From the NCBI GenBank assembly GCA_021813125.1, contig JAKALT010000001.1:23-64022 (forward strand): DNA of 64,000 nucleotides, read 5' to 3'. Each line of letters begins with the position of its first letter. Position 1 is the stretch's first letter. A program made the translations under genes and the position numbers. This document shows, one piece after another, positions 1,848-17,117 of the stretch. Source of the stretch: a bacterium. GTDB taxonomy: Bacteria > Patescibacteriota > Microgenomatia > Curtissbacterales > GWA2-41-24. Below the pieces are notes generated by a model. That model was not told the origin of the DNA, ran no database searches, and saw only the letters and a program-made list of their open reading frames with translations.

Positions 1848-3989
1848 ATGGCTACTAATACTACAAACAGATTATATCCGCTCGATCGAATCCGAAACAT
1901 CGGTATCATTGCTCATATCGACGCGGGCAAAACGACAACCACGGAAAGAATCCTCTTCTATACCGGTAAATCCTACAAACTCGGTGATATCGACGAAGGT
2001 ACAACTGTTACCGACTGGATGGAGCAGGAAAAAGAAAGGGGAATAACCATAGTTTCCGCAGCCGTCACTGCATTTTGGACCCCAAAGGCGGGTCTAATGA
2101 AAGACATCGAAACCCGCATCAACATCATTGACACTCCCGGACACGTTGATTTTACGGCCGAAGTCGAAAGGTCACTGCGCGTTCTAGACGGTGGAGTAAC
2201 GGTCCTCGACGCCGAAGAAGGCGTCCAGTCACAATCCGAAACCGTTTGGCGTCAGGCAGACAAATACAATGTTCCGAGGATTTGTTTTGTTAACAAAATG
2301 GACAAAATGGGGGCAGATTATTTTGCAACGCTAAAATCTATACGCGAGCGCCTGGGCGCACCGGCGGTTCCATACAACATTCCAATAGGCAGTGAAAATG
2401 ACTTCCGCGGAGTAGTTGATCTTATAACCAAAAAAGCCTTTGTCTGGGAAGCAGACCCAAAGGGTCTTGGTAAGGAATTCAAAGAAGAAGAAATCCCGGA
2501 AAATTTAAAAGATGAGGTCGAAAAGTGGCGCGCCGAACTTGTTGAAAAGATCGCCGAAACGGATGATAGCCTGACGGAAAAATTTCTTGCGGGCGAAGAA
2601 ATAACGGAAGCCGAACTCAAAAGCGCTTTGCGTGCAGCGGTTATCAAATACAAAATCGTGCCGGTGTTGGCAGGTTCATCACTTAGAAACAAAGGTGTCC
2701 AACCGCTCCTGGACGCGGTTGTCGAATATCTTCCCTCCCCGCAGGATATTGAGACAATCGAAGGAACAAATCCTAAAACCGCCGAAAAAGAAGTCCGCAA
2801 GTTGGTAATGGAAGAACCCTTTGCAGGGCTTGCATTTAAAATTCAAATCGATCCCCATGTTGGAAAGCTCACCTACGTCCGTGTTTACTCCGGTACTCTA
2901 AAATCGGGCACGTCAGTTCTAAACACGACCAAACATGACCGCGAAAGGATTGGCAGGATTCTTTTGATGCATGCCAACACGCGCGAAGAAATAACCGAAG
3001 CTTACGCTGGTGAAATTGTGGCGATCGTCGGCCTTAAAGGAACAGGAACAGGGGATACACTTTGTGACGAAGCCCACCCAATTATTCTCGAATCGATTTC
3101 CTTCCCTGAGCCGGTTATATCACTGGCCATTGAACCACAAACAAAAGCGGACCAGGAAAAACTAGGGTATGCACTAGGTCGTCTTAGCGAAGAAGATCCG
3201 ACATTCAGAATCAAAGGTGATCCGGAAACGGGACAAACCATCATCTCCGGGATGGGCGAACTGCATTTGGAAATTTTGGTAGATCGCCTGAAGCGTGAAT
3301 TTTCCGTCGGCGCCAATGTCGGCTCCCCACAGGTTGCCTACCGCGAAACCATTAAAGAGACCGCAACTGGTGAAGGTAAATATATCCGTCAATCAGGTGG
3401 CCGTGGTCAGTACGGCCATTGTTTCCTTAGAGTTGAGCCAAAACCAAGGGGTGAAGGTTACGAATATAAATCCGAAGTTAAAGGTGGCGCTATTCCGCAG
3501 GAATATATCCCGTCTATCGAAAAAGGTGTACGCGAAAAAATGGAAATGGGTGTCCTTGCAGGATATCCTTTGGTCGATATGAAAGTCATTGTCTACGACG
3601 GAACCTACCACGATGTAGATTCTTCCGATATTGCTTTCAAAATCGCAGGATCTATGGCACTGGAAGAAGCAGCTAAACACGCCAAACTAGTTTTACTGGA
3701 ACCTATAATGAAAGTGGAAGTTACTGTCCCCGAAGAATTTATGGGCGATGTAATCGGAGATTTATCAAGTAAACGTGCTCAGATCCACGGTTCGGATCAT
3801 CACGGCAATTCCGTTATCATCAACGCACTTGTCCCCTTGGCTGAAATGTCAGGCTACGTCACAACTTTAAGGTCCATGACGCAAGGCCGCGGTTCCGCTT
3901 ACATGGAACCATCCCACTACGACGAAGTCCCCACCAATATCTCCGACAAGATAGTTGCAAAAAACAAGGGCGAGAAAAAAGAAAGCTAG
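1848..3989 (+). CDS. fusA: Translation elongation factor G
   Basis: 713 aa. G-domain motifs [21 protein letters not shown]. Full EF-G domain layout. Confidence 0.97.
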
Positions 3990-4036
3990 CCCTATAGTTT
4001 GACATTCACCTATAAAAAGTATAAAATTCATTCCTT

Positions 4037-4354
4037 ATGAATCGGGAAAATGATTATCTTGGAGGTTTACTCAGACATTATGTTTCTGGTCGCCAAGGAG
4101 ATGAAGATTACTTAAGACCACAAATTGATCTTTTTGATGGAGAAATCCAAGGTTTTCAAGTTGGAGATCGTATTAGATTTTCTGATGAAGCCTATGAACA
4201 GTTTAGAGGCAAGGAAGCAAGGGTTGCAGGCTTCGACAGCGATTTCAATATCTGGACCCAAATGGACGGTGAAAGTGGCTATAGTAGGACACCAAGAGAG
4301 TTTGCCCATAGAGCATTTACATTAGTCAGACGTGAGGAAGTGTCTGACAAGTAA
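4037..4354 (+). CDS. Hypothetical protein (105 aa), part of the segment inserted after fusA
   Basis: ORF only. Acidic protein with no recognised motifs. Lies inside the region bracketed by the fusA 3' direct repeats. Confidence 0.4.
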   Translation: MNRENDYLGGLLRHYVSGRQGDEDYLRPQIDLFDGEIQGFQVGDRIRFSDEAYEQFRGKEARVAGFDSDFNIWTQMDGESGYSRTPREFAHRAFTLVRREEVSDK

Positions 4355-4401
4355 TTTCTGCTAAAATCTTCTTGTGAAACTACTTTTAACTTCAAACGGT
4401 C

Positions 4402-4671
4402 TTATTTGCCGTAAACTTGATTATGCGTTCCGATATCTACAAAATAGGCGATATTTTTATGAATATAGTAAACAACCCTAATGTCTCCGGTTACGGAAAA
4501 AGCGTGTTTTCCTAACATTTTCTTGCCAAGCGCATGATTTTTAAGAATCGGGTCATTTTCATTTACAACGAATAATCTTAACTTTTCTTCAAACCTTAGC
4601 TTTACATTTGGCTTGTTTGAAAAACGTTTTTTGTAAATTTTGACAAATTCATGAGTAAACTCTACCTTCAT
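4402..4671 (-). CDS. Type II toxin, RelE/ParE superfamily, YafQ-like mRNA interferase
   Basis: 89 aa. ...LKNHALGKKMLGKHAFSVTGDIRVVYYI...FVDIGTHNQVY resembles YafQ/RelE (HPLxGxWKGxRxxHVxPDWxLIYxx...RTGTHxxLF). Overlaps the upstream antitoxin ORF by 4 nt. Confidence 0.7.
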   Translation of the reverse strand: MKVEFTHEFVKIYKKRFSNKPNVKLRFEEKLRLFVVNENDPILKNHALGKKMLGKHAFSVTGDIRVVYYIHKNIAYFVDIGTHNQVYGK

Positions 4672-4964
4672 GAACGAAGCAGAGTAAGAAGCTCATCTAC
4701 GTTTTTGGTTTTTGTAACATTTTTGCCGGCTTTTATATCGCTGACCGCGCGCTTAAACTTTGCTTCTGCCGCGGGAGAAAGATGATGAATTTCCTCAACA
4801 GGTTCAATTGTCATTGCCAGCTCGTTTTTGGAAAGCTTTGTAAGAAGTACCCGAATTGCTTCCTGCAGCGAAGAAAAACCCATCTCGGAAGAAGCGCTTT
4901 GCGCATTAATTTTTAATTCACGGCTCATTGGAACTTGTAAAATTACTCTTTGCATACAATACAA
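4668..4964 (-). CDS. Type II antitoxin, DinJ/RelB family (start codon uncertain: Met1, Met4 or Met13)
   Basis: ...MSRELKINAQSASSEMGFSSLQEAIRVLLTKL...EPVEEI...SPAAEAKFKRAVSDIKAGKNVTKTKNVDELLTLL parallels E. coli DinJ (RIDEDLKNQAADVLAGMGLTISDLVRITLTKVAREKALPFDL...KAKDADDLFDKL). 4-nt overlap with the toxin. Confidence 0.65.
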   Translation of the reverse strand: MYCMQRVILQVPMSRELKINAQSASSEMGFSSLQEAIRVLLTKLSKNELAMTIEPVEEIHHLSPAAEAKFKRAVSDIKAGKNVTKTKNVDELLTLLRS

Positions 4965-4997
4965 TTATATAGTTTTTGTATGTTTATGTCAACTACC

Positions 4998-5087
4998 TAC
5001 ATGGAACCATCCCATTACGACGAAGTCCCAACAAATATCTCCGACAAAATCGTCGCCAAAAACAAGGGCGAGAAAAAAGAAAGTTAA
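4998..5087 (+). pseudogene. Duplicated 3' fragment of fusA (90 bp, about 90% identical to 3900..3989 including a stop codon)
   Basis: Seen directly: tacatggaaccatccca(t)tacgacgaagtccc...aaaaacaagggcgagaaaaaagaaag(t)ta(a) repeats the fusA terminus. In-frame translation [29 protein letters not shown]. Confidence 0.9.
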
Positions 5088-5135
5088 TTTCTTCTTATAA
5101 ATTTATCTCCAAATATTTTGCTATACTGAAATTAA

Positions 5136-5918
5136 GTGAAAAAAGGTTTTACACCGATTTTTATTTTAATTTCGGCAGGCGTGCTAATCATAGCTACAGC
5201 ATTCATTTTTTTTGCAAAGGTAACTGCTCAAAAGGCTACAACTCTTTCTATACCACCAAAACAGTCAATTAACTCAAGAACAAATAGCTCACCCTCAGCG
5301 ACTATTGCTTTAAAAACACCAATCACGTCTAGTCCAACTCCAACAGATGATCCAAACAACTTTGGTAAGCTTGTCAATAATTATACGAAACAATTTAATG
5401 CAAACGATGTTGGAATAAATTCATCACTACTTTCCGGAAAGCAAGTTTCATATTTGATTTCTCGATTCCATCAAAAAGAAATAACCGAAAAGAAAATTAT
5501 AATTAGTGATACCCCATCTTATGAAGCTGTAGAAGTATGGGAATTCCCGAAAAGTTCGAATCAAACTACCTCTAATCCTGATTATGCTATTTTTTCGGGC
5601 TATGAAAATTATGCCGGTTGGCCAACCTACTTAAAGGATATTGAGTCAGGTTGGAAAGAATTCTATACCAATTCCAATTCAATCAAATTTGGATTTTCTT
5701 ATGATGGTGGTCCCCATTATCTTCAAAACGTAATCCTAGAATCATTTCAAAACTCTTCTGTAAATGGAAATCCAATATTTATCAGGCTATATATGAACAC
5801 TTCTTCAATGGTCTTTACAGATAATTTAAATTGGGAAGATATAATTAACAAACCAGCCATATTAGAAGCAAAAGATAAAATAAAACAACTTGCAGATACC
5901 ATTTCCCTCGTAAAGTAA
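5136..5918 (+). CDS. Hypothetical membrane-anchored/secreted protein (N-terminal TM helix, Ser/Thr/Pro-rich linker)
   Basis: 260 aa. Hydrophobic N-terminus FTPIFILISAGVLIIATAFIFFA followed by SSPTPTDDP linker. No recognisable family. Confidence 0.55.
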   Translation: MKKGFTPIFILISAGVLIIATAFIFFAKVTAQKATTLSIPPKQSINSRTNSSPSATIALKTPITSSPTPTDDPNNFGKLVNNYTKQFNANDVGINSSLLSGKQVSYLISRFHQKEITEKKIIISDTPSYEAVEVWEFPKSSNQTTSNPDYAIFSGYENYAGWPTYLKDIESGWKEFYTNSNSIKFGFSYDGGPHYLQNVILESFQNSSVNGNPIFIRLYMNTSSMVFTDNLNWEDIINKPAILEAKDKIKQLADTISLVK

Positions 5919-5965
5919 ACCATACTTTCCATATCGTCACGAAAAATGTTTTTTACTTTTGGGGC

Positions 5966-5994
5966 TTGCATTTTGGCAAATTTTTATTTAAACT
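5966..5994 (+). promoter_or_regulatory. Candidate promoter upstream of tuf (-35 TTGCAT, 17 nt, -10 TAAACT)
   Basis: Seen directly in the 130-bp spacer before tuf. Confidence 0.3.
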
Positions 5995-6049
5995 ATCCAA
6001 ACTGGTCAGCCTTGATGGGCTGATTGTGCTTTTATAACCAAAAAATATC

Positions 6050-7234
6050 ATGGCAACAGGAAAATACGAAAGAAGTAAACCGCACGTAAATATAGGGACA
6101 ATTGGCCACGTCGATCACGGCAAGACAACATTGACCGCGGCAATAACATCGGTCCTTTCCAAAAAAGGTTTGGCGGAAGCAAAAGCTTTCGACCAGATTG
6201 ACAACGCTCCCGAAGAGAAGCAACGCGGAATTACAATCAACATTACCCACGTCGAGTACGAAACCGAAAAGCGTCACTATGCCCACATTGACGCTCCGGG
6301 CCACGCAGACTACATCAAAAACATGATAACAGGCGCCGCTCAAATGGACGGCGCAATTCTTGTGGTTTCAGCTCCCGACGGCCCAATGCCTCAGACCCGC
6401 GAACACGTTCTTTTAGCTCGCCAGGTAAATGTGCCGGCAATTGTCGTTTTCCTCAACAAGTGCGACATGGTTCAGGATGCCGAACTTTTGGATCTGGTTG
6501 AACTTGAAGTCCGTGAACTTCTGGACAAATACGAATACGACGGCAAAAACGCAACCATCATTCGTGGCTCAGCTAAAAAAGCACTCGAAGGTGATGCCGA
6601 TTCCGTCAAAGCCATCGAAGATCTCATGGCCGCGGTCGACGAAAAAATCCCAACCCCCGTTCGCGATCTGGACAAACCATTTTTGATGCCTGTCGAAGAC
6701 GTTTTCTCGATTAAAGGTCGGGGAACTGTTGTCACCGGCAGAGTCGAGCGTGGAGTCGTTAAAGTAAACGACGAAATTGAAATCGTAGGAATCCGCCCGA
6801 CCAAAAAAACAGTTGTCACAGGAGTTGAAATGTTCCGAAAGGAACTCGACCAGGGCCAGGCCGGCGACAATATTGGAGTATTGCTGCGTGGTATCGAAAA
6901 AGACGATGTAGAACGCGGACAGGTTTTGGCAAAAACTGGTAGCGCAACTCCCCACACCGAATTTGAAGCCGAAGTTTATATTTTAACCAAAGAAGAAGGT
7001 GGTCGGCACACTCCATTTTTCACCGGTTACCGACCGCAGTTTTACATCCGAACAACCGATGTTACAGGGGAAGCCACGTTGCCGGAAGGCACCGAAATGG
7101 TAATGCCCGGTGACAATATTAAAATGAAGGTTAAGCTCATTGTCCCCGTTGCACTCGAAGAAGGCCTTAGGTTTGCCATCCGTGAGGGTGGTCATACTGT
7201 AGGCGCCGGAGTAGTTTCCAAAGTAGTTGCCTAA
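6050..7234 (+). CDS. tuf: Translation elongation factor Tu
   Basis: 394 aa. [27 protein letters not shown] motifs. Confidence 0.98.
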
Positions 7235-7759: not shown

Positions 7760-7765
7760 GTAAAA

Positions 7766-7846
7766 AATTCGAAGCACGAAACCCGAAATCCGAAACAAAA
7801 TGCTAATTTTCGAATTTCGAATTTAGGATTTCGAATTTCAAATTTG
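7766..7846. repeat. Cluster of palindromic TTCGAATTT / CGAAA(T/C)C repeats forming a long imperfect inverted repeat in the rpsJ-rplC spacer
   Basis: Seen directly: ...cgaaacccgaaatccgaaac...ttttcgaatttcgaatttaggatttcgaatttc... An additional perfect hairpin aatcga-cacaaga-tcgatt lies at 7870..7887. Confidence 0.7.
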
Positions 7847-7996
7847 GGGGTTGTGGTTAAAAATTAAATAATCGACACAAGATCGATTAACGAAAAACAG
7901 AATAACGTTAATCGGTGGGACACCTGAAACCCTGATTTGCCTAACCGCGACAGTTTAATTTAAGGAGTCCTACCTTTTTGCTGTAAAAAAGGAAAA

Positions 7997-8773
7997 ATGA
8001 TAAATAGTTTGCTTGGTACAAAACAAAATATGACCGTAAGGTTTACAAAGCAAGGCGCGAGAGTTGCCGTAACTAATGTGATGGTCGAACCTAATGTAGT
8101 TTTAAATATTGTAGAAGGCAAGACCGTACTTGGTGTTGGCCAAAGGAAAAAAATCAAAAAAACAGATGGCATGTATGTTAAGGCAGCAGGTATTATGCCG
8201 CGATTTATAAAAGAGATAAAATCCGAAAAATCGGAAAATATCAAATCCGGAGACAAAATAACTGTCTCCGTTTTTGAACCAGGTGACGAAATTAAGGTAA
8301 CGGGTACTACCAAAGGGAAAGGGTTTGCAGGCGGAGTCAAAAGATGGGGATTTCGTGGTGGTCCAAAAACTCACGGCCAGTCCGACAGGCATCGCGCCCC
8401 AGGATCAATCGGGGCAGGTACCACTCCTGGCCGTGTTTATAAGGGTAAACATATGGCAGGCCATATGGGTGCTTCGCAAATCACCGTTACCGGGTTGGAA
8501 GTTATAGATGTTGATTCCACAAACAACATTTTAACTGTAAAAGGTGCAATTCCCGGCGCCAAAAACGGTTTTTTGGTAATTGAAAAAACCGGGAAAGTAA
8601 AAGGCTATACACCACCTCCCCCCCCAAACGAAGAAAAAGCTGCCGAAAAAGAAGAACAAGCAGAAGAAGAAGCAAAAGCAGCAAAGGCTGAAGCGTCTGA
8701 AAATCAAACCGAAGTTGTAGAGCAGGAGTCTCAGCCTCAGACTGAATCAGAAGGAGGGGAAAATGCCGGCTAA
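7997..8773 (+). CDS. rplC: 50S ribosomal protein L3 with acidic low-complexity C-terminal tail
   Basis: L3 core. Ends PPPPPNEEKAAEKEEQAEEEAKAAKAEASENQTEVVEQE... Confidence 0.93.
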   Translation: MINSLLGTKQNMTVRFTKQGARVAVTNVMVEPNVVLNIVEGKTVLGVGQRKKIKKTDGMYVKAAGIMPRFIKEIKSEKSENIKSGDKITVSVFEPGDEIKVTGTTKGKGFAGGVKRWGFRGGPKTHGQSDRHRAPGSIGAGTTPGRVYKGKHMAGHMGASQITVTGLEVIDVDSTNNILTVKGAIPGAKNGFLVIEKTGKVKGYTPPPPPNEEKAAEKEEQAEEEAKAAKAEASENQTEVVEQESQPQTESEGGENAG

Positions 8774-9539
8774 AAACTCAAAACCCAAAACTCAAAACGC
8801 AAAAGCTATAAAGTCCCAGCCGAAAGCTGGCCGTCCTCTGGACGAAAAAATCACAAAAGCCAAAAAAGAGGTTAAGAGTAAAAGAGTAATAGAGTCAAAA
8901 TCCCCAAACTCCAAAGGAAAAACCGCAGGTCTTTCAGCACCGCTTTTTGATATTGCAGGCAAAAGCCAGGGAACGATTAATCTTCCCAAAGAAATATTTG
9001 GCCAAAAACCTAACAAAAAACTTTTGGCTCAGGCACTCCGTGTTTATTTCGTAAATCAAACCTCACATTTTGCAAACACCAAAACAAGATCAGAAACACG
9101 CGGCGGAGGCAAAAAACCATGGCGTCAAAAAGGCACAGGAAACGCAAGAGCCGGTTCCAAAAGGTCGCCACTTTGGGTAGGCGGCGCGGTCGCTCTTGGG
9201 CCAAAACCCAGAAAAACCATATTAACCCTCCCCAAGAAAATGAAAAAGAAAGCACTAGTTTCCAGCCTTTCCCAAAAAGCATCAGAAGGCGCAATTAGTG
9301 TTGTTTCAAATTTCGAATCCATTAAGCCCAAAACTAAAGTTGTTGCAAATCTGCTTTTAAAATCAAATGCAAGCGGCTCAACACTTTTAGTGACTTCGCA
9401 AAATTCCCAAAGCATCAAGCTTGCTTCAAGAAATATTTCTAATGTTTCAGTTGATGAAGTAAGAAACCTGAACCCTTATTTAGTTTACAAAAGTAGAACA
9501 ATTATTTTTTCAAAGGAAGCAATAGGAAAACTATCATGA
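8763..9539 (+). CDS. rplD: 50S ribosomal protein L4/L1e with about 55-aa Lys-rich N-terminal extension (start uncertain)
   Basis: Canonical L4 start LSAPLFDIAGKSQGTINLPKEIFG appears about 57 aa into the ORF. 11-nt overlap with rplC. Confidence 0.9.
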   Translation: MPAKNSKPKTQNAKAIKSQPKAGRPLDEKITKAKKEVKSKRVIESKSPNSKGKTAGLSAPLFDIAGKSQGTINLPKEIFGQKPNKKLLAQALRVYFVNQTSHFANTKTRSETRGGGKKPWRQKGTGNARAGSKRSPLWVGGAVALGPKPRKTILTLPKKMKKKALVSSLSQKASEGAISVVSNFESIKPKTKVVANLLLKSNASGSTLLVTSQNSQSIKLASRNISNVSVDEVRNLNPYLVYKSRTIIFSKEAIGKLS

Positions 9540-9958
9540 TAAGAACATTCGTTATAAAAGAGGCAGTTCTCTCCGAAAAAGCACATCAACAGATGGCACG
9601 GGGAATTTACACTTTTCGCGTGGATAACAGGTCCACTAAAAAAGAAATAGCAAGCGCCATCAAAAAGCAGTTTGCTGTTGATGTTGTAAGCGTCAACATT
9701 ATTGCTCAATCGCCCAAAAAAAGGAGAATTACTGGCACACGCAGGGAAGTTGAAATAACCGGAGCAAAAAAAGCAATTATTAAGGTAAAACCTGGCCAAA
9801 CTATTGCAATGCTTTCGCCAAAGGCGGAGGGAAAGAAAGAGTCAAAGAGACAAAAAGCCAAAGAGATTAAGAAGCCGGAAGAAAAATCAGCAGCCATAAA
9901 TAAAGGTTTGCTATCAAAAATCAGAGGAAATAAATCAACAAAAGAAAAGGGTAACTAA
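9536..9958 (+). CDS. rplW: 50S ribosomal protein L23 with K-rich C-terminal extension
   Basis: L23 core (KAHQQMARGIYTFRVDNRSTKKEI...) plus about 45-aa basic tail. Confidence 0.9.
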   Translation: MIRTFVIKEAVLSEKAHQQMARGIYTFRVDNRSTKKEIASAIKKQFAVDVVSVNIIAQSPKKRRITGTRREVEITGAKKAIIKVKPGQTIAMLSPKAEGKKESKRQKAKEIKKPEEKSAAINKGLLSKIRGNKSTKEKGN

Positions 9959-9961
9959 TTC

Positions 9962-10783
9962 ATGGCACTTAGAATTTACAAACCTACAACTTCAGCGCAA
10001 AGGTTTAAATCCGGTCTAAATTTTATGGAGATCACAAAAACCGGACCGGAAAAATCTCTGATAAAAAGCCAAAACAGAGCCTCGGGTCGTTCCTTTGGAA
10101 AAATAACTGCACGGGGTATTGGCGGTGGTCACAAACAGCATTTTAGAATAATAGATTTCAAGAGAAACAAAAGAGACATTGTGGCCAGAGTTGCTTCAAT
10201 CGAATACGACCCAAACCGAACAGCCAATATTGCTCTTTTAAACTATGAAGACGGAGAAAAAAGATATATATTGGCTCCTTTAGGTCTTGAAGTTGGCGCT
10301 AAAATCACAACTTCCGACAAAACTGAGATTAAACCCGGAAACAGTATGCCGATCGGTAAGATGCCGATCGGAACAGTAGTCCATAATGTTGAGCTAATAC
10401 CAGGCGCTGGCGGCGCAATTGTAAGAAGCGCTGGAACGGGAGCAGTAATTGCAGCGCGCGAAGGAAACTACGTCCACCTAAAACTCCCCTCAAAAGAAGT
10501 TCGCAAAGTTCACACTTCATGCTACGCAACAATTGGTCAACTTGGAAATGTTGACTGGAAAAATATTTCTCTTGGAAAGGCCGGGAGATCTCGCCATATG
10601 GGTCGACGCCCTAAAGTCCGTGGTGTAGCAATGGATCCGGCTTCGCATCCGCATGGCGGCGGTGAAGGAAAATCTGGAACGGGTATGAATCCGAAAACCA
10701 GAAGCGGCAAACCGGCTTTTGGCAAAACCAGAAGACGCAGAAAACCGTCAAGCAGATTTATATTATCGAGGAGGAAGAAATAA
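9962..10783 (+). CDS. rplB: 50S ribosomal protein L2
   Basis: 273 aa. ...GRNxxGxITxRHxGGGHKxxYRxIDF... and C-terminal GGGEGKSG motifs. Confidence 0.97.
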   Translation: MALRIYKPTTSAQRFKSGLNFMEITKTGPEKSLIKSQNRASGRSFGKITARGIGGGHKQHFRIIDFKRNKRDIVARVASIEYDPNRTANIALLNYEDGEKRYILAPLGLEVGAKITTSDKTEIKPGNSMPIGKMPIGTVVHNVELIPGAGGAIVRSAGTGAVIAAREGNYVHLKLPSKEVRKVHTSCYATIGQLGNVDWKNISLGKAGRSRHMGRRPKVRGVAMDPASHPHGGGEGKSGTGMNPKTRSGKPAFGKTRRRRKPSSRFILSRRKK

Positions 10784-10784
10784 A

Positions 10785-11153
10785 ATGACTGAGCAATATA
10801 GACATCAAATAGATCCAACAACAATTTTATATATGCCCGACCAGCATCCATATAGATTTGGTCGAGTTTATGCTTCGGGTAGGGGAGATCAGCAAGGTAG
10901 AATATTTTTCCACGCATGGACTGCTGCTAAACCTAATTTGGAATCAGCACTTGAAGAAGCAAAAAGAACTGAAATAGGCTATGCTGCACCAGTTGTAGTT
11001 GGTCCAGATATTGATCGCGATGCAACTTGTAAAGCCAGAAAAGCTATGTTTAATCATCAAAGTCTAGGCATTTGGAAGGAAGAAGGAGCTGACAGTAAAA
11101 CGATGAAACTTATTCGAGGAAAACTGTCTCAAAGGAAAGGGAAAAATGTCTAG
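10785..11153 (+). CDS. Hypothetical protein (122 aa) inserted between rplB and rpsS
   Basis: ATG at 10785 lies 1 nt after the rplB stop, with AGGAGG 9 nt upstream. The longer 144-aa ORF from 10719 overlaps rplB in another frame and is less likely. The 3' end overlaps the rpsS start by 8 nt. No recognised family ([48 protein letters not shown]...). Confidence 0.5.
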
Positions 11154-11430
11154 ATCAAGTAAAAAAGGTCCGTATGTAGACGAGAAATTGATGAAGAAAG
11201 TAATGACACAAAAAGAAGGTGGACAAAAATCCGCCATCAAAACCTGGGCCCGCGCAAGCCAGATTGCACCGGAATTTGTAAATCATACATTCTCAGTTCA
11301 TAATGGCCGGACTTTTATAAACGTATTCGTATCAGAACCGATGGTTGGTCATCGCTTGGGTGAATTTGCGCCGACTAGAACTTTTAGGGGTCACGGAAAA
11401 ATAACCGAAAAAGCAAAAGCCAAGAAATAA
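11146..11430 (+). CDS. rpsS: 30S ribosomal protein S19
   Basis: [19 protein letters not shown]... canonical. Confidence 0.95.
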
Positions 11431-15841: not shown

Positions 15842-16204
15842 ATGATAAATAAAAAACAGCAAAAAAGACAAAGACATATAAGGGCAAGGAAAAAGTTGAC
15901 TGGCACCCAATTGGCACCACGGCTTTCGGTTTTTCGATCGTCAAAATATATTTACGCTCAGATCATAGATGACACGGTCATGAAAACAATTGTTTCCTCA
16001 TCAGATGTTAAATCAAAAAACAAGGCAAAAAGCGAAGAAGGAACTATAAAAATTCAATCTGCTTTTGCAGTTGGCCAAGATTTAGCGACAAAAGCGCTAG
16101 CTAAAAAAGTAAAAAAGGTTGTTTTTGACTCCGGAGGCAATAAGTACCATGGACGTGTTAAAGCACTCGCCGACGGAGCAAGAAAAGGAGGTTTAATTTT
16201 CTAA
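15842..16204 (+). CDS. rplR: 50S ribosomal protein L18
   Basis: 120 aa, conserved position. Confidence 0.9.
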
Positions 16205-16662
16205 TGGTAAGAGATTCAAGATATATCCCGGAAGTTAAAGAATTTGAAGAAAAAGTGATTCAGGTCAATCGTGTCTCTAAAAAAACACAAGGCGGCAACC
16301 AGATGAGCTTTTCGGCACTAGTTGTTATTGGCGACAGAAAAGGTCGTGTTGGCGTCGGGTTGGGAAAGTCAAAAGATGTCGCATCAGCTATCAGAAAAGG
16401 TGTAAATCTCGCTAAAAAACACTTGATTACTGTCCCGGTTGTAAGAGGCACAATTCCGCATGATATTTTTATTAAAAAAGGAGCAGCAAAAATTTTGCTA
16501 AAACCAGCCCCTGAAGGTTCTGGAGTTATCGCCGGCGGGGCAGTTAGAGCAGTCGTAGAAGCTGCTGGTATAAGAAACATTTCCAGTAAAGTTTTAGGCA
16601 CTAAAAATCAGGCTTCCAATGTTTATGCAACACTTGAAGCATTAAGGAGCTTTCTAGTATGA
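16204..16662 (+). CDS. rpsE: 30S ribosomal protein S5
   Basis: 152 aa. Followed directly by rplO with no intervening rpmD (L30). Confidence 0.93.
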
Positions 16663-17117
16663 ATTTAAAAGACCTTCCTAAACAAAAAGCAAAAAGTGCT
16701 AAAAGAATTGGCAGAGGTCCGGGGACTGGAAAAGGGAAAACGTCCGGTCGCGGTCAAAAGGGTCAAAATGCTAGGGGCAAACTGCCAATCACCCACTCTC
16801 ATTTCGAAGGTGGTCAGAGGCCACTTATAAAAAGACTCCCTTACCGAAAAGGCAAAGGTAACCGCAAGGTATCCAAAAAGCCAATTGTAGTCAACCTCAA
16901 AACGATTAACGTTTTACCCAAAGGAGAAGTTGTCACAATTGATTCTCTAATAAAGTACAAAATCGTTGATAAAAACGACGCAAAGATATACGGCGTAAAA
17001 ATACTCGGCGACGGAACACTTTCTAACTCCTACAAATTTAATATCAAAACATCAAAAAGCGCCGCCGAAAAAATTAAAAAAGCTGGCGGAGAAATAATGG
17101 CTTCAAAGTCAAAATAA
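16659..17117 (+). CDS. rplO: 50S ribosomal protein L15
   Basis: [19 protein letters not shown] motif. Confidence 0.93.

Follow-up and report, generated by a model that had tools for sequence, protein, structure and literature searches.

The stretch of bacterial DNA analysed here, hereafter the window, is 64,000 nucleotides (nt) long and encodes the str, S10, spc and alpha clusters of ribosomal genes. Its gene order runs rpsL, rpsG, fusA, tuf, rpsJ, rplC, rplD, rplW, rplB, gene X, rpsS, rplV and onwards to secY, where gene X denotes an open reading frame (ORF) lodged between the genes for the ribosomal proteins uL2 and uS19. To our knowledge, the adjacency of rplB and rpsS is among the most conserved in prokaryotes and its interruption is otherwise almost unknown. 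The junction comprises the following features.

9962-10783, forward strand: rplB (uL2, 273 amino acids), from the ORF list, with the Pfam domains Ribosomal_L2_N and L2_C on the identical gene in the relative L001.
10769-10774, forward strand: AGGAGG Shine-Dalgarno sequence, within the last rplB codons (protein end SRRKK, then stop) and 10 nt before the ATG of gene X.
10785-11153, forward strand: gene X, 122 amino acids, belonging to an undescribed Microgenomates family of small proteins.
11131-11143, forward strand: purine-rich stretch AAAGGAAAGGGAA in the last codons of gene X, a putative ribosome-binding site for rpsS.
11146-11153, forward strand: 8-nt overlap ATGTCTAG, comprising the rpsS start codon and the gene X stop codon.
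11146-11430, forward strand: rpsS (uS19, 94 amino acids), Pfam Ribosomal_S19.

Gene X occupies 122 codons, from an ATG at 10785 to a TAG at 11151-11153. The start codon lies 1 nt downstream of the rplB stop (TAA, 10781-10783), and the rpsS ATG at 11146 falls inside the 3' end of the gene, giving the overlap ATGTCTAG. The frame has no internal stop, while each of the remaining five frames of this stretch contains 3-14. A sequence-only reading of the locus had described an AGGAGG ribosome-binding site, a start 1 nt past rplB, an 8-nt overlap with rpsS and a 122-residue product; our coordinates reproduce this anatomy and the translation is identical. Its description of the protein as aromatic- and histidine-rich is only mildly true, with histidine at 3.3% against 1.7% in the other proteins of the window, and Phe, Tyr and Trp together at 9.0% against 7.1%. 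Gene X is not an assembly chimera, since several samples yield the identical gene on contigs assembled independently of one another (ENA ERZ27237554, ERZ27237587, ERZ27237538 and ERZ27237541; SRA SRR13300764, SRR13241953 and SRR13299515). At least seven ENA/SRA samples contain the same DNA, with 0-1 mismatches across up to 8.7 kb. A search with the family profile found no second copy in the window, and no promoter- or terminator-like signals above chance expectation bracket the gene.

Several other features of the window deserve mention in their own right. An insert of approximately 2 kb (3990-6049) separates fusA (1848-3989) from tuf (6050-7234). It comprises an uncharacterized 105-residue ORF (4037-4354, forward strand), a YafQ-like toxin (4402-4671, reverse strand; Pfam E-value 3e-7) overlapped by a weakly matching RelB-like antitoxin (4668-4964, reverse strand), and a 260-residue ORF (5136-5918, forward strand) with a hydrophobic N-terminus, no Pfam match and the second-lowest GC content at third codon positions (GC3) in the window. 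The rpsJ-rplC gap of 237 nt (7760-7996) is unusually long for a tightly packed operon and gave no Rfam match. Among the ribosomal proteins, uL3 (7997-8773) ends in PPPPP followed by an acidic tail of about 50 residues, uL4 (8763-9539) has a lysine-rich N-terminal extension of about 60 residues and uL23 (9536-9958) a lysine-rich C-terminal extension of about 40. At 16204-17117 rpsE directly precedes and overlaps rplO by 4 nt, leaving no L30 gene in between, an expected trait of CPR bacteria.

A word-indexed sequence search with the gene X protein returned only gene X itself. An exhaustive phmmer (HMMER) scan of 1.84 billion representative proteins, that is, cluster representatives, recovered about 15 full-length, stand-alone relatives of 103-135 amino acids, with 29-41% identity and E-values between 9e-10 and 8e-4. 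Four further members (L013, L015, L050 and L053) came from the rplB-rpsS junctions of relatives, whose contigs had been fetched with uL2 or uS19. In hmmsearch with the family profile, the window ORF scored an E-value of 9e-39 and the other junction members scored 1e-16 to 1e-35, across two profile versions. Six phmmer matches (P0004, P0006, P0013, P0017, P0018 and P0022) were excluded: they are eukaryote-like repeat proteins of 242-1712 amino acids whose matches cover one short stretch only, and were judged spurious. In the four repeat proteins that were read (P0004, P0006, P0017 and P0022), the matching part is a repeated KIFFPVWTCIKPNLVSK-like unit, aligned with residues 31-55 of the window protein (E-values 3e-8 to 8e-4).

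That the protein matches no recognized family, as the sequence-only reading had stated, was borne out. Pfam, NCBIfam, PHROGs and PADLOC gave no family at all for the window protein, and sequence and profile searches against PDB sequences gave no match. Curated libraries compared with 18 members produced only scattered single-member matches with E-values of 0.003 or worse, and we found no description of gene X in the literature. The family alignment is marked by the motifs HP(I/V)DPES near the N-terminus, GR(D/G)xxEG, VVGPxID..S and F(N/D)HxxLGxW. Its only invariant columns are three glycines (G32, G73 and G95); every candidate Asp, Glu, His or Ser position varies and no polar residue is invariant. 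Isoelectric points range from 4.7 to 10.1.

Across all 16 loci with known context the frame is open at 101-135 amino acids. Synonymous divergence (dS) between carriers is saturated even in rpsS, at 1.0 to more than 4, so that the family must be old. Non-synonymous divergence (dN) between carriers is 0.55-0.91 for X against 0.09-0.15 for uS19, and X nonetheless remains alignable over its whole length; its protein has evolved six- to eight-fold faster than the rpsS product. Length, motifs and fold have been kept far beyond the point at which unconstrained DNA would be recognizable, which amounts to purifying selection on the protein. A lack of such selection had been named at the outset as grounds for abandoning the gene; the protein proved alignable despite saturated synonymous sites.

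AlphaFold2 predicts a confident alpha/beta fold for the window protein (pLDDT 92.1, pTM 0.84) and the same order of elements for P0010, a divergent acidic member (pLDDT 86.5, pTM 0.77); both models derive from one shared, shallow alignment of 18 sequences and are not fully independent. The predicted topology is beta-beta-beta-alpha-beta-alpha-beta-alpha: three strands, a helix, a strand, a short helix, a long strand and a C-terminal helix, the last of which is missing in several members. A Foldseek comparison, proposed earlier as a check, was run with both models against the PDB, ribosome structures included, and gave nothing significant (best E-values 0.45-0.76, TM-scores no higher than 0.36). 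The first model likewise had no significant neighbour in the viral structure library BFVD. A resemblance to type III secretion chaperones was dismissed, being weak for the first model (TM-score 0.35, probability 0.14) and absent with the second.

The genomic context of the family is uniform. In 16 of 16 members with known context (the window, eleven located by exact sequence and four from junctions) the gene order is rplB, X, rpsS, all on one strand. The synteny survey suggested in the sequence-only reading turned up homologues of X at the very same junction in many relatives, and the description given there, of a gene embedded in the operon at the level of translation, stands. X usually begins 1-3 nt past the rplB stop, or overlapping with it, downstream of the AGGAGG in the rplB tail. 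Base-by-base reading of 11 junctions showed the X stop codon overlapping the start of rpsS in 10, as ATGA, ATGTCTAG or TAATG. The 8-nt overlap of the window recurs in L015, L043, L045, L127 and L128, and the 4-nt ATGA form is found in L013, L039, L041, L050 and L053. Judging from the 3' ends of 11 genes, the KGE(R/K)-type C-terminal tails of other members encode an equivalent AGGAG, and are best read as a putative rpsS Shine-Dalgarno sequence placed within protein-coding sequence. The overlapping stop and start codons are the arrangement expected for translational coupling of X and rpsS.

We also considered whether X is made as an extension of uL2 by frameshifting or readthrough and rejected this, the frame relation between X and rplB differing from carrier to carrier. 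In the window the X frame extends without a stop through 32 codons ahead of its ATG, but through only 0-3 codons in L050, L053 and L043, and the rplB tail read in the X frame gives YYRGGRNK in the window and FVEEEE in L041. Taken together, gene X is almost certainly a genuine protein-coding gene. It represents a family not described before, made up of stand-alone proteins 101-135 amino acids long whose known contexts are all rplB-rpsS junctions.

The hosts of X are Curtissbacteria, one Levybacteria-like lineage and other Patescibacteria. When the window uL2 was compared with one genome per species, the closest relative (L007) was 93% identical and named Curtissbacteria metagenome-assembled genomes (MAGs) were 67-72% identical, which assigns the window to Candidatus Curtissbacteria (CPR/Patescibacteria, Microgenomates). 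L043, a carrier outside the Curtissbacteria, has a uL2 that is 87% identical to that of a Levybacteria MAG, and other carriers fall in a second deep clade of Patescibacteria. On the L043 contig, the place immediately before rplC, where rpsJ would be expected, is taken by an rve-family integrase/transposase gene (1-220).

Within these groups carriage is patchy. Among 27 Curtissbacteria-like junctions fetched without reference to X, 4 contain the gene, 16 have short non-coding inserts of 45-153 nt and in 7 rplB abuts rpsS. X is thus far from the near-universal presence within a lineage that is usual for a structural ribosomal protein. About 56 more distant junctions in which both genes were readable include none with X; some have inserts (45-117 nt, and one of about 640 nt) and in most the two genes abut. 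In L007, the closest relative, the site is cleanly empty (junction TCGAGGAGGAAGAAATAAATGAGC) and the AGGAGG directly serves rpsS; any role of X must therefore be dispensable. The genes also abut in L008, L014, L017, L018, L047 and L049. Relatives with rplB abutting rpsS had been put forward as an observation that would count against the gene; some do abut, but many others carry homologous X, and the case for a real gene is not undone.

Such a distribution shows that the family, besides evolving fast, has been lost from, or never gained by, many lineages. Three pairs of sister hosts both carry X (L015 and L050, L045 and L127, L038 and L129). Pairwise identity among X proteins is nevertheless flat, at 25-40%, without correlation with host identity (Spearman 0.1, p 0.44), and the family tree is star-like. 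We do not take the flat identities as a sign of horizontal exchange, as dS is saturated for all pairs and vertical descent fits equally; ancient vertical descent with many losses and exchange between lineages explain them equally well. Comparison of codon usage with the flanking ribosomal protein genes, another check proposed from the outset, was carried out as GC3 and set X apart: X has a lower GC3 than rpsS in 13 of 15 carriers (Wilcoxon p 0.001) and ranks last in GC3 among the 67 genes of the window. This suggests that selection for translational efficiency is weaker on X than on true ribosomal protein genes. Recent horizontal acquisition was not accepted as the cause, since the deficit is family-wide and dates no acquisition.

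The junction itself appears prone to insertion. In Curtissbacteria relatives without X it often contains inserts of 45-139 nt (for example L009:2506-2569, L046:1938-2000, L016:3820-3902, L010:3820-3958 and L012:2941-2989) set between direct repeats of the 3' end of rplB, and similar inserts are present in L048, L051, L054, L056, L037, L055 and L059. The repeats are perfect over 21 nt in L009 and L046 and over 17 nt in L016. L012 and L048 have imperfect ones of roughly 30 nt (z 5-13 against shuffled sequences), and in L010 two insert units stand in tandem. Between L009 and L046 a 1-nt indel shifts the frame of the mini-ORF, and the conserved insert unit is therefore the nucleotide sequence rather than a peptide. 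Unusually stable hairpins occur in the inserts of L016 (z -3.5), L010 (z -3.4) and L011 (z -4.3), and a 10-bp inverted-repeat hairpin (z -5.4) in L013:3820-3916, the spacer between rplB and a copy of X. A conserved non-coding element, about 100 nt long and with two stable hairpins (z -4.3), is common to L011:2219-2338 and L052:1848-2000, again at this junction. No Rfam family matched the junction inserts and hairpins, so that known RNA families at the junction were set aside. More distantly, in the patescibacterial L112 (1356-2000), about 640 nt separate rplB from rpsS and hold only low-complexity ORFs without similarity to X.

Because an insertion at this point separates rpsS from a ribosome-binding site buried in rplB, only insertions that bring a second copy of that site would survive. 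The family profile found no trace of X in the mini-inserts, and with 5' similarity (ATGAC..TAGAGAAA) that is weak, we rejected the proposal that they are recognizably decayed copies of X. They may be footprints of lost genes or X copies, or independent small mobile or duplicated elements.

How, then, is gene X to be understood? That it encodes no functional protein, being an ORF open by chance or in decay within inserted intergenic sequence, is scarcely credible, and the conservation data effectively refute it: the solitary hit of the word-indexed search and the lowest GC3 in the window would fit such an ORF, but full-length homologues with conserved motifs in at least 15 diverged lineages, a frame open at 101-135 amino acids in 16 of 16 loci, confident AlphaFold2 models for two members and a dN well under the saturated dS would not. 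The sequence-only reading had offered three functions, namely a ribosome-associated factor, a regulator and a selfish insertion, and the last of these is unlikely in its nuclease-type form, in view of the lack of any conserved catalytic residue or nuclease match. A free-standing gene of the homing-endonuclease type, which would cleave unoccupied rplB-rpsS junctions and place a copy of itself in them, is accordingly very improbable. Its insertion point would indeed always be identical, between two highly conserved genes, and the mini-inserts of relatives are flanked by direct repeats of the target; filled and empty sites also occur among close relatives (the window and L007, with uL2 93% identical), an observation not specific to homing. 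Against it, LAGLIDADG, GIY-YIG, HNH and PD-(D/E)xK nucleases were unmatched in Pfam and in Foldseek against the PDB, and X has no motif, domain or structural match to these classes or to EDxHD. Acidic, histidine and tyrosine residues are never invariant, the three glycines alone being so, the core of about 100 residues has no separate DNA-binding domain, and the divergence among carriers is ancient, which does not suit a recent invasion. A regulator acting by feedback on translation of the S10 mRNA, or a coupling device that sets the uL2:uS19 translation ratio, is improbable to a lesser degree. The overlapping stop and start codons and the putative rpsS ribosome-binding site within the 3' end of X are what such a device would use, and junctions without X are often bridged by short ORFs through which coupling is still possible. 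A mere spacer, however, would not hold fold and motifs through saturated divergence, an RNA binder would have to be basic throughout the family, which X is not, the vicinity holds neither a conserved RNA structure nor an Rfam family, and the known autoregulators of ribosomal protein operons are ribosomal proteins themselves.

Two broader explanations remain to be weighed. X could be a hitchhiking accessory gene unrelated to the ribosome (encoding an immunity, anti-toxin-like, conflict or other cytosolic protein) that landed once or a few times at the junction and became locked in, rpsS translation now depending on it and only precise deletion being viable; recombination between homologous, strongly conserved flanks may carry it from lineage to lineage. 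This account is possible, if on the whole rather unlikely. It would explain the patchy distribution and the clean empty site in the sister genome L007, the very fast evolution, star-like tree and lack of correlation with host identity, and the variable charge and a GC3 below that of the flanking genes. The junction in Curtissbacteria is moreover a hotspot of unrelated short inserts with 17-21-nt direct repeats, several with hairpins, and the window genome tolerates the 2-kb insert with its YafQ-like toxin between fusA and tuf. Yet members of the family match no defence, phage or toxin-antitoxin profile: PADLOC matched 0 of 18 members, and the only neighbours at the locus are rplB and rpsS, with no toxin-antitoxin or defence partner. 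Phage, plasmid and IMG/VR viral collections hold no relative, and an origin in such elements was rejected on these grounds together with the empty PHROGs search. X is a single gene without partner or recombinase. Shared carriage by sister hosts and saturated dS make vertical descent with repeated loss a sufficient account that needs no transfer, and expression at the level of ribosomal proteins would be costly for a protein unconnected to the ribosome. The other explanation, a dispensable, non-enzymatic, putative binding protein that acts with the ribosome or with free uL2 or uS19, is the one that we tentatively prefer. Three considerations commend it, namely that selection on the fold is maintained, that the tie of expression to ribosomal proteins is long-lasting and that residents of these clusters generally serve translation. 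Long-term conservation of operon adjacency correlates with physical interaction of the gene products, and the non-ribosomal-protein genes resident in S10 and spc clusters have functions in translation or protein biogenesis. Synteny alone is no proof of a ribosomal role, because lock-in by coupling would also explain a fixed position. Neither Foldseek against the PDB nor PDB sequence and profile searches linked X to ribosome-associated proteins. Our leading hypothesis is thus an accessory role associated with the ribosome or its proteins, with the locked-in hitchhiker a close second.

The nature of that preferred role as a partner of the ribosome or its proteins can be narrowed somewhat. An enzyme is unlikely because three glycines are the only invariant columns. 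The suggestion of a ribosome-associated factor in the sequence-only reading is retained here as the leading reading, without its most familiar form: a classical basic, rRNA-binding ribosomal protein is unlikely because isoelectric points span 4.7-10.1, carriage is patchy and the gene is dispensable. The candidates are a peripheral ribosome-bound subunit and an assembly or escort factor. A more specific version, in which X is a ribosome-bound Microgenomates protein of novel fold, either an additional subunit that the ribosome can do without or an escort devoted to uL2 or uS19, is doubtful. In the working model for the preferred role, a ribosome terminating on rplB would reinitiate on X by means of the AGGAGG within rplB, and one terminating on X would reinitiate on rpsS by means of the purine-rich site in the last codons of X. 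Coupling of this kind would hold the output of X at a constant proportion to that of uL2 and uS19. Binding would be the task of the compact alpha/beta core, residues 15-100 or thereabouts, with the C-terminal helix an optional addition. Once installed, X would presumably be removable only by a near-precise deletion that restores the ribosome-binding site of rpsS.

Residence of small genes in ribosomal protein clusters has precedents. The E. coli gene priB, which does not encode a ribosomal protein, lies between rpsF and rpsR in a ribosomal protein operon, and in archaea the gene for the RNase P protein Rpp29 lies between rpl29 and rps17. The family GU_19737823, to which no function is assigned, follows rpsF-rpsR in Pseudomonadales (PMC9132574). 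X resembles these three in being a small, lineage-restricted gene, presumably co-transcribed with its neighbours from one fixed slot of a conserved ribosomal protein cluster, and differs from them in its slot, its lack of sequence or fold kinship and its much patchier carriage. Its small size, fast evolution, dispensability and uneven distribution are shared with small ribosomal or ribosome-bound proteins confined to particular lineages, of the types bS21, bS22, bL37, bTHX, bL25 and bL31. Proteins of this latter type are strongly basic and encoded outside the S10 operon, whereas X has a variable isoelectric point (4.7-10.1), is encoded within the S10 operon, shows no homology to them and is only hypothesized to bind the ribosome. 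The seg and mob genes of T-even phages offer a third comparison, being likewise present or absent at an invariant site between two conserved genes, and the target-derived direct repeats at the site of X in relatives extend the likeness. Unlike seg and mob, X has no nuclease match or catalytic residues, resides in cellular hosts whose lineages diverged anciently, and is absent from phage and plasmid collections. X is no member of any of the families compared, be they cluster residents, small ribosomal proteins or homing genes.

CPR genomes encode thousands of lineage-specific genes without assigned function. A survey of CPR ribosomal proteins described the absence of bL9 and uL30 as well as various extensions, and gene X is not reported in it (PMC9297842). 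Here, a conserved adjacency is broken by a conserved, apparently coupled and undescribed gene in at least two groups of Microgenomates, the Curtissbacteria and a Levybacteria-like lineage. Should X prove to be a hitchhiker, it would exemplify an accessory gene locked into an essential operon by translational coupling, with the repeat-flanked mini-inserts recording repeated insertion and deletion at the junction. The family is in either event a testable target, being small and soluble-looking, with a confident model and with natural carriers and non-carriers among sister genomes. If X instead binds the ribosome or the products of its neighbours, it would be a new, CPR-specific component of translation and a handle on how reduced ribosomes are built; as a ribosome-bound protein, it would be encoded at a point of the S10 operon that is otherwise hardly ever interrupted, and this among bacteria whose ribosomes are already without bL9 and uL30.
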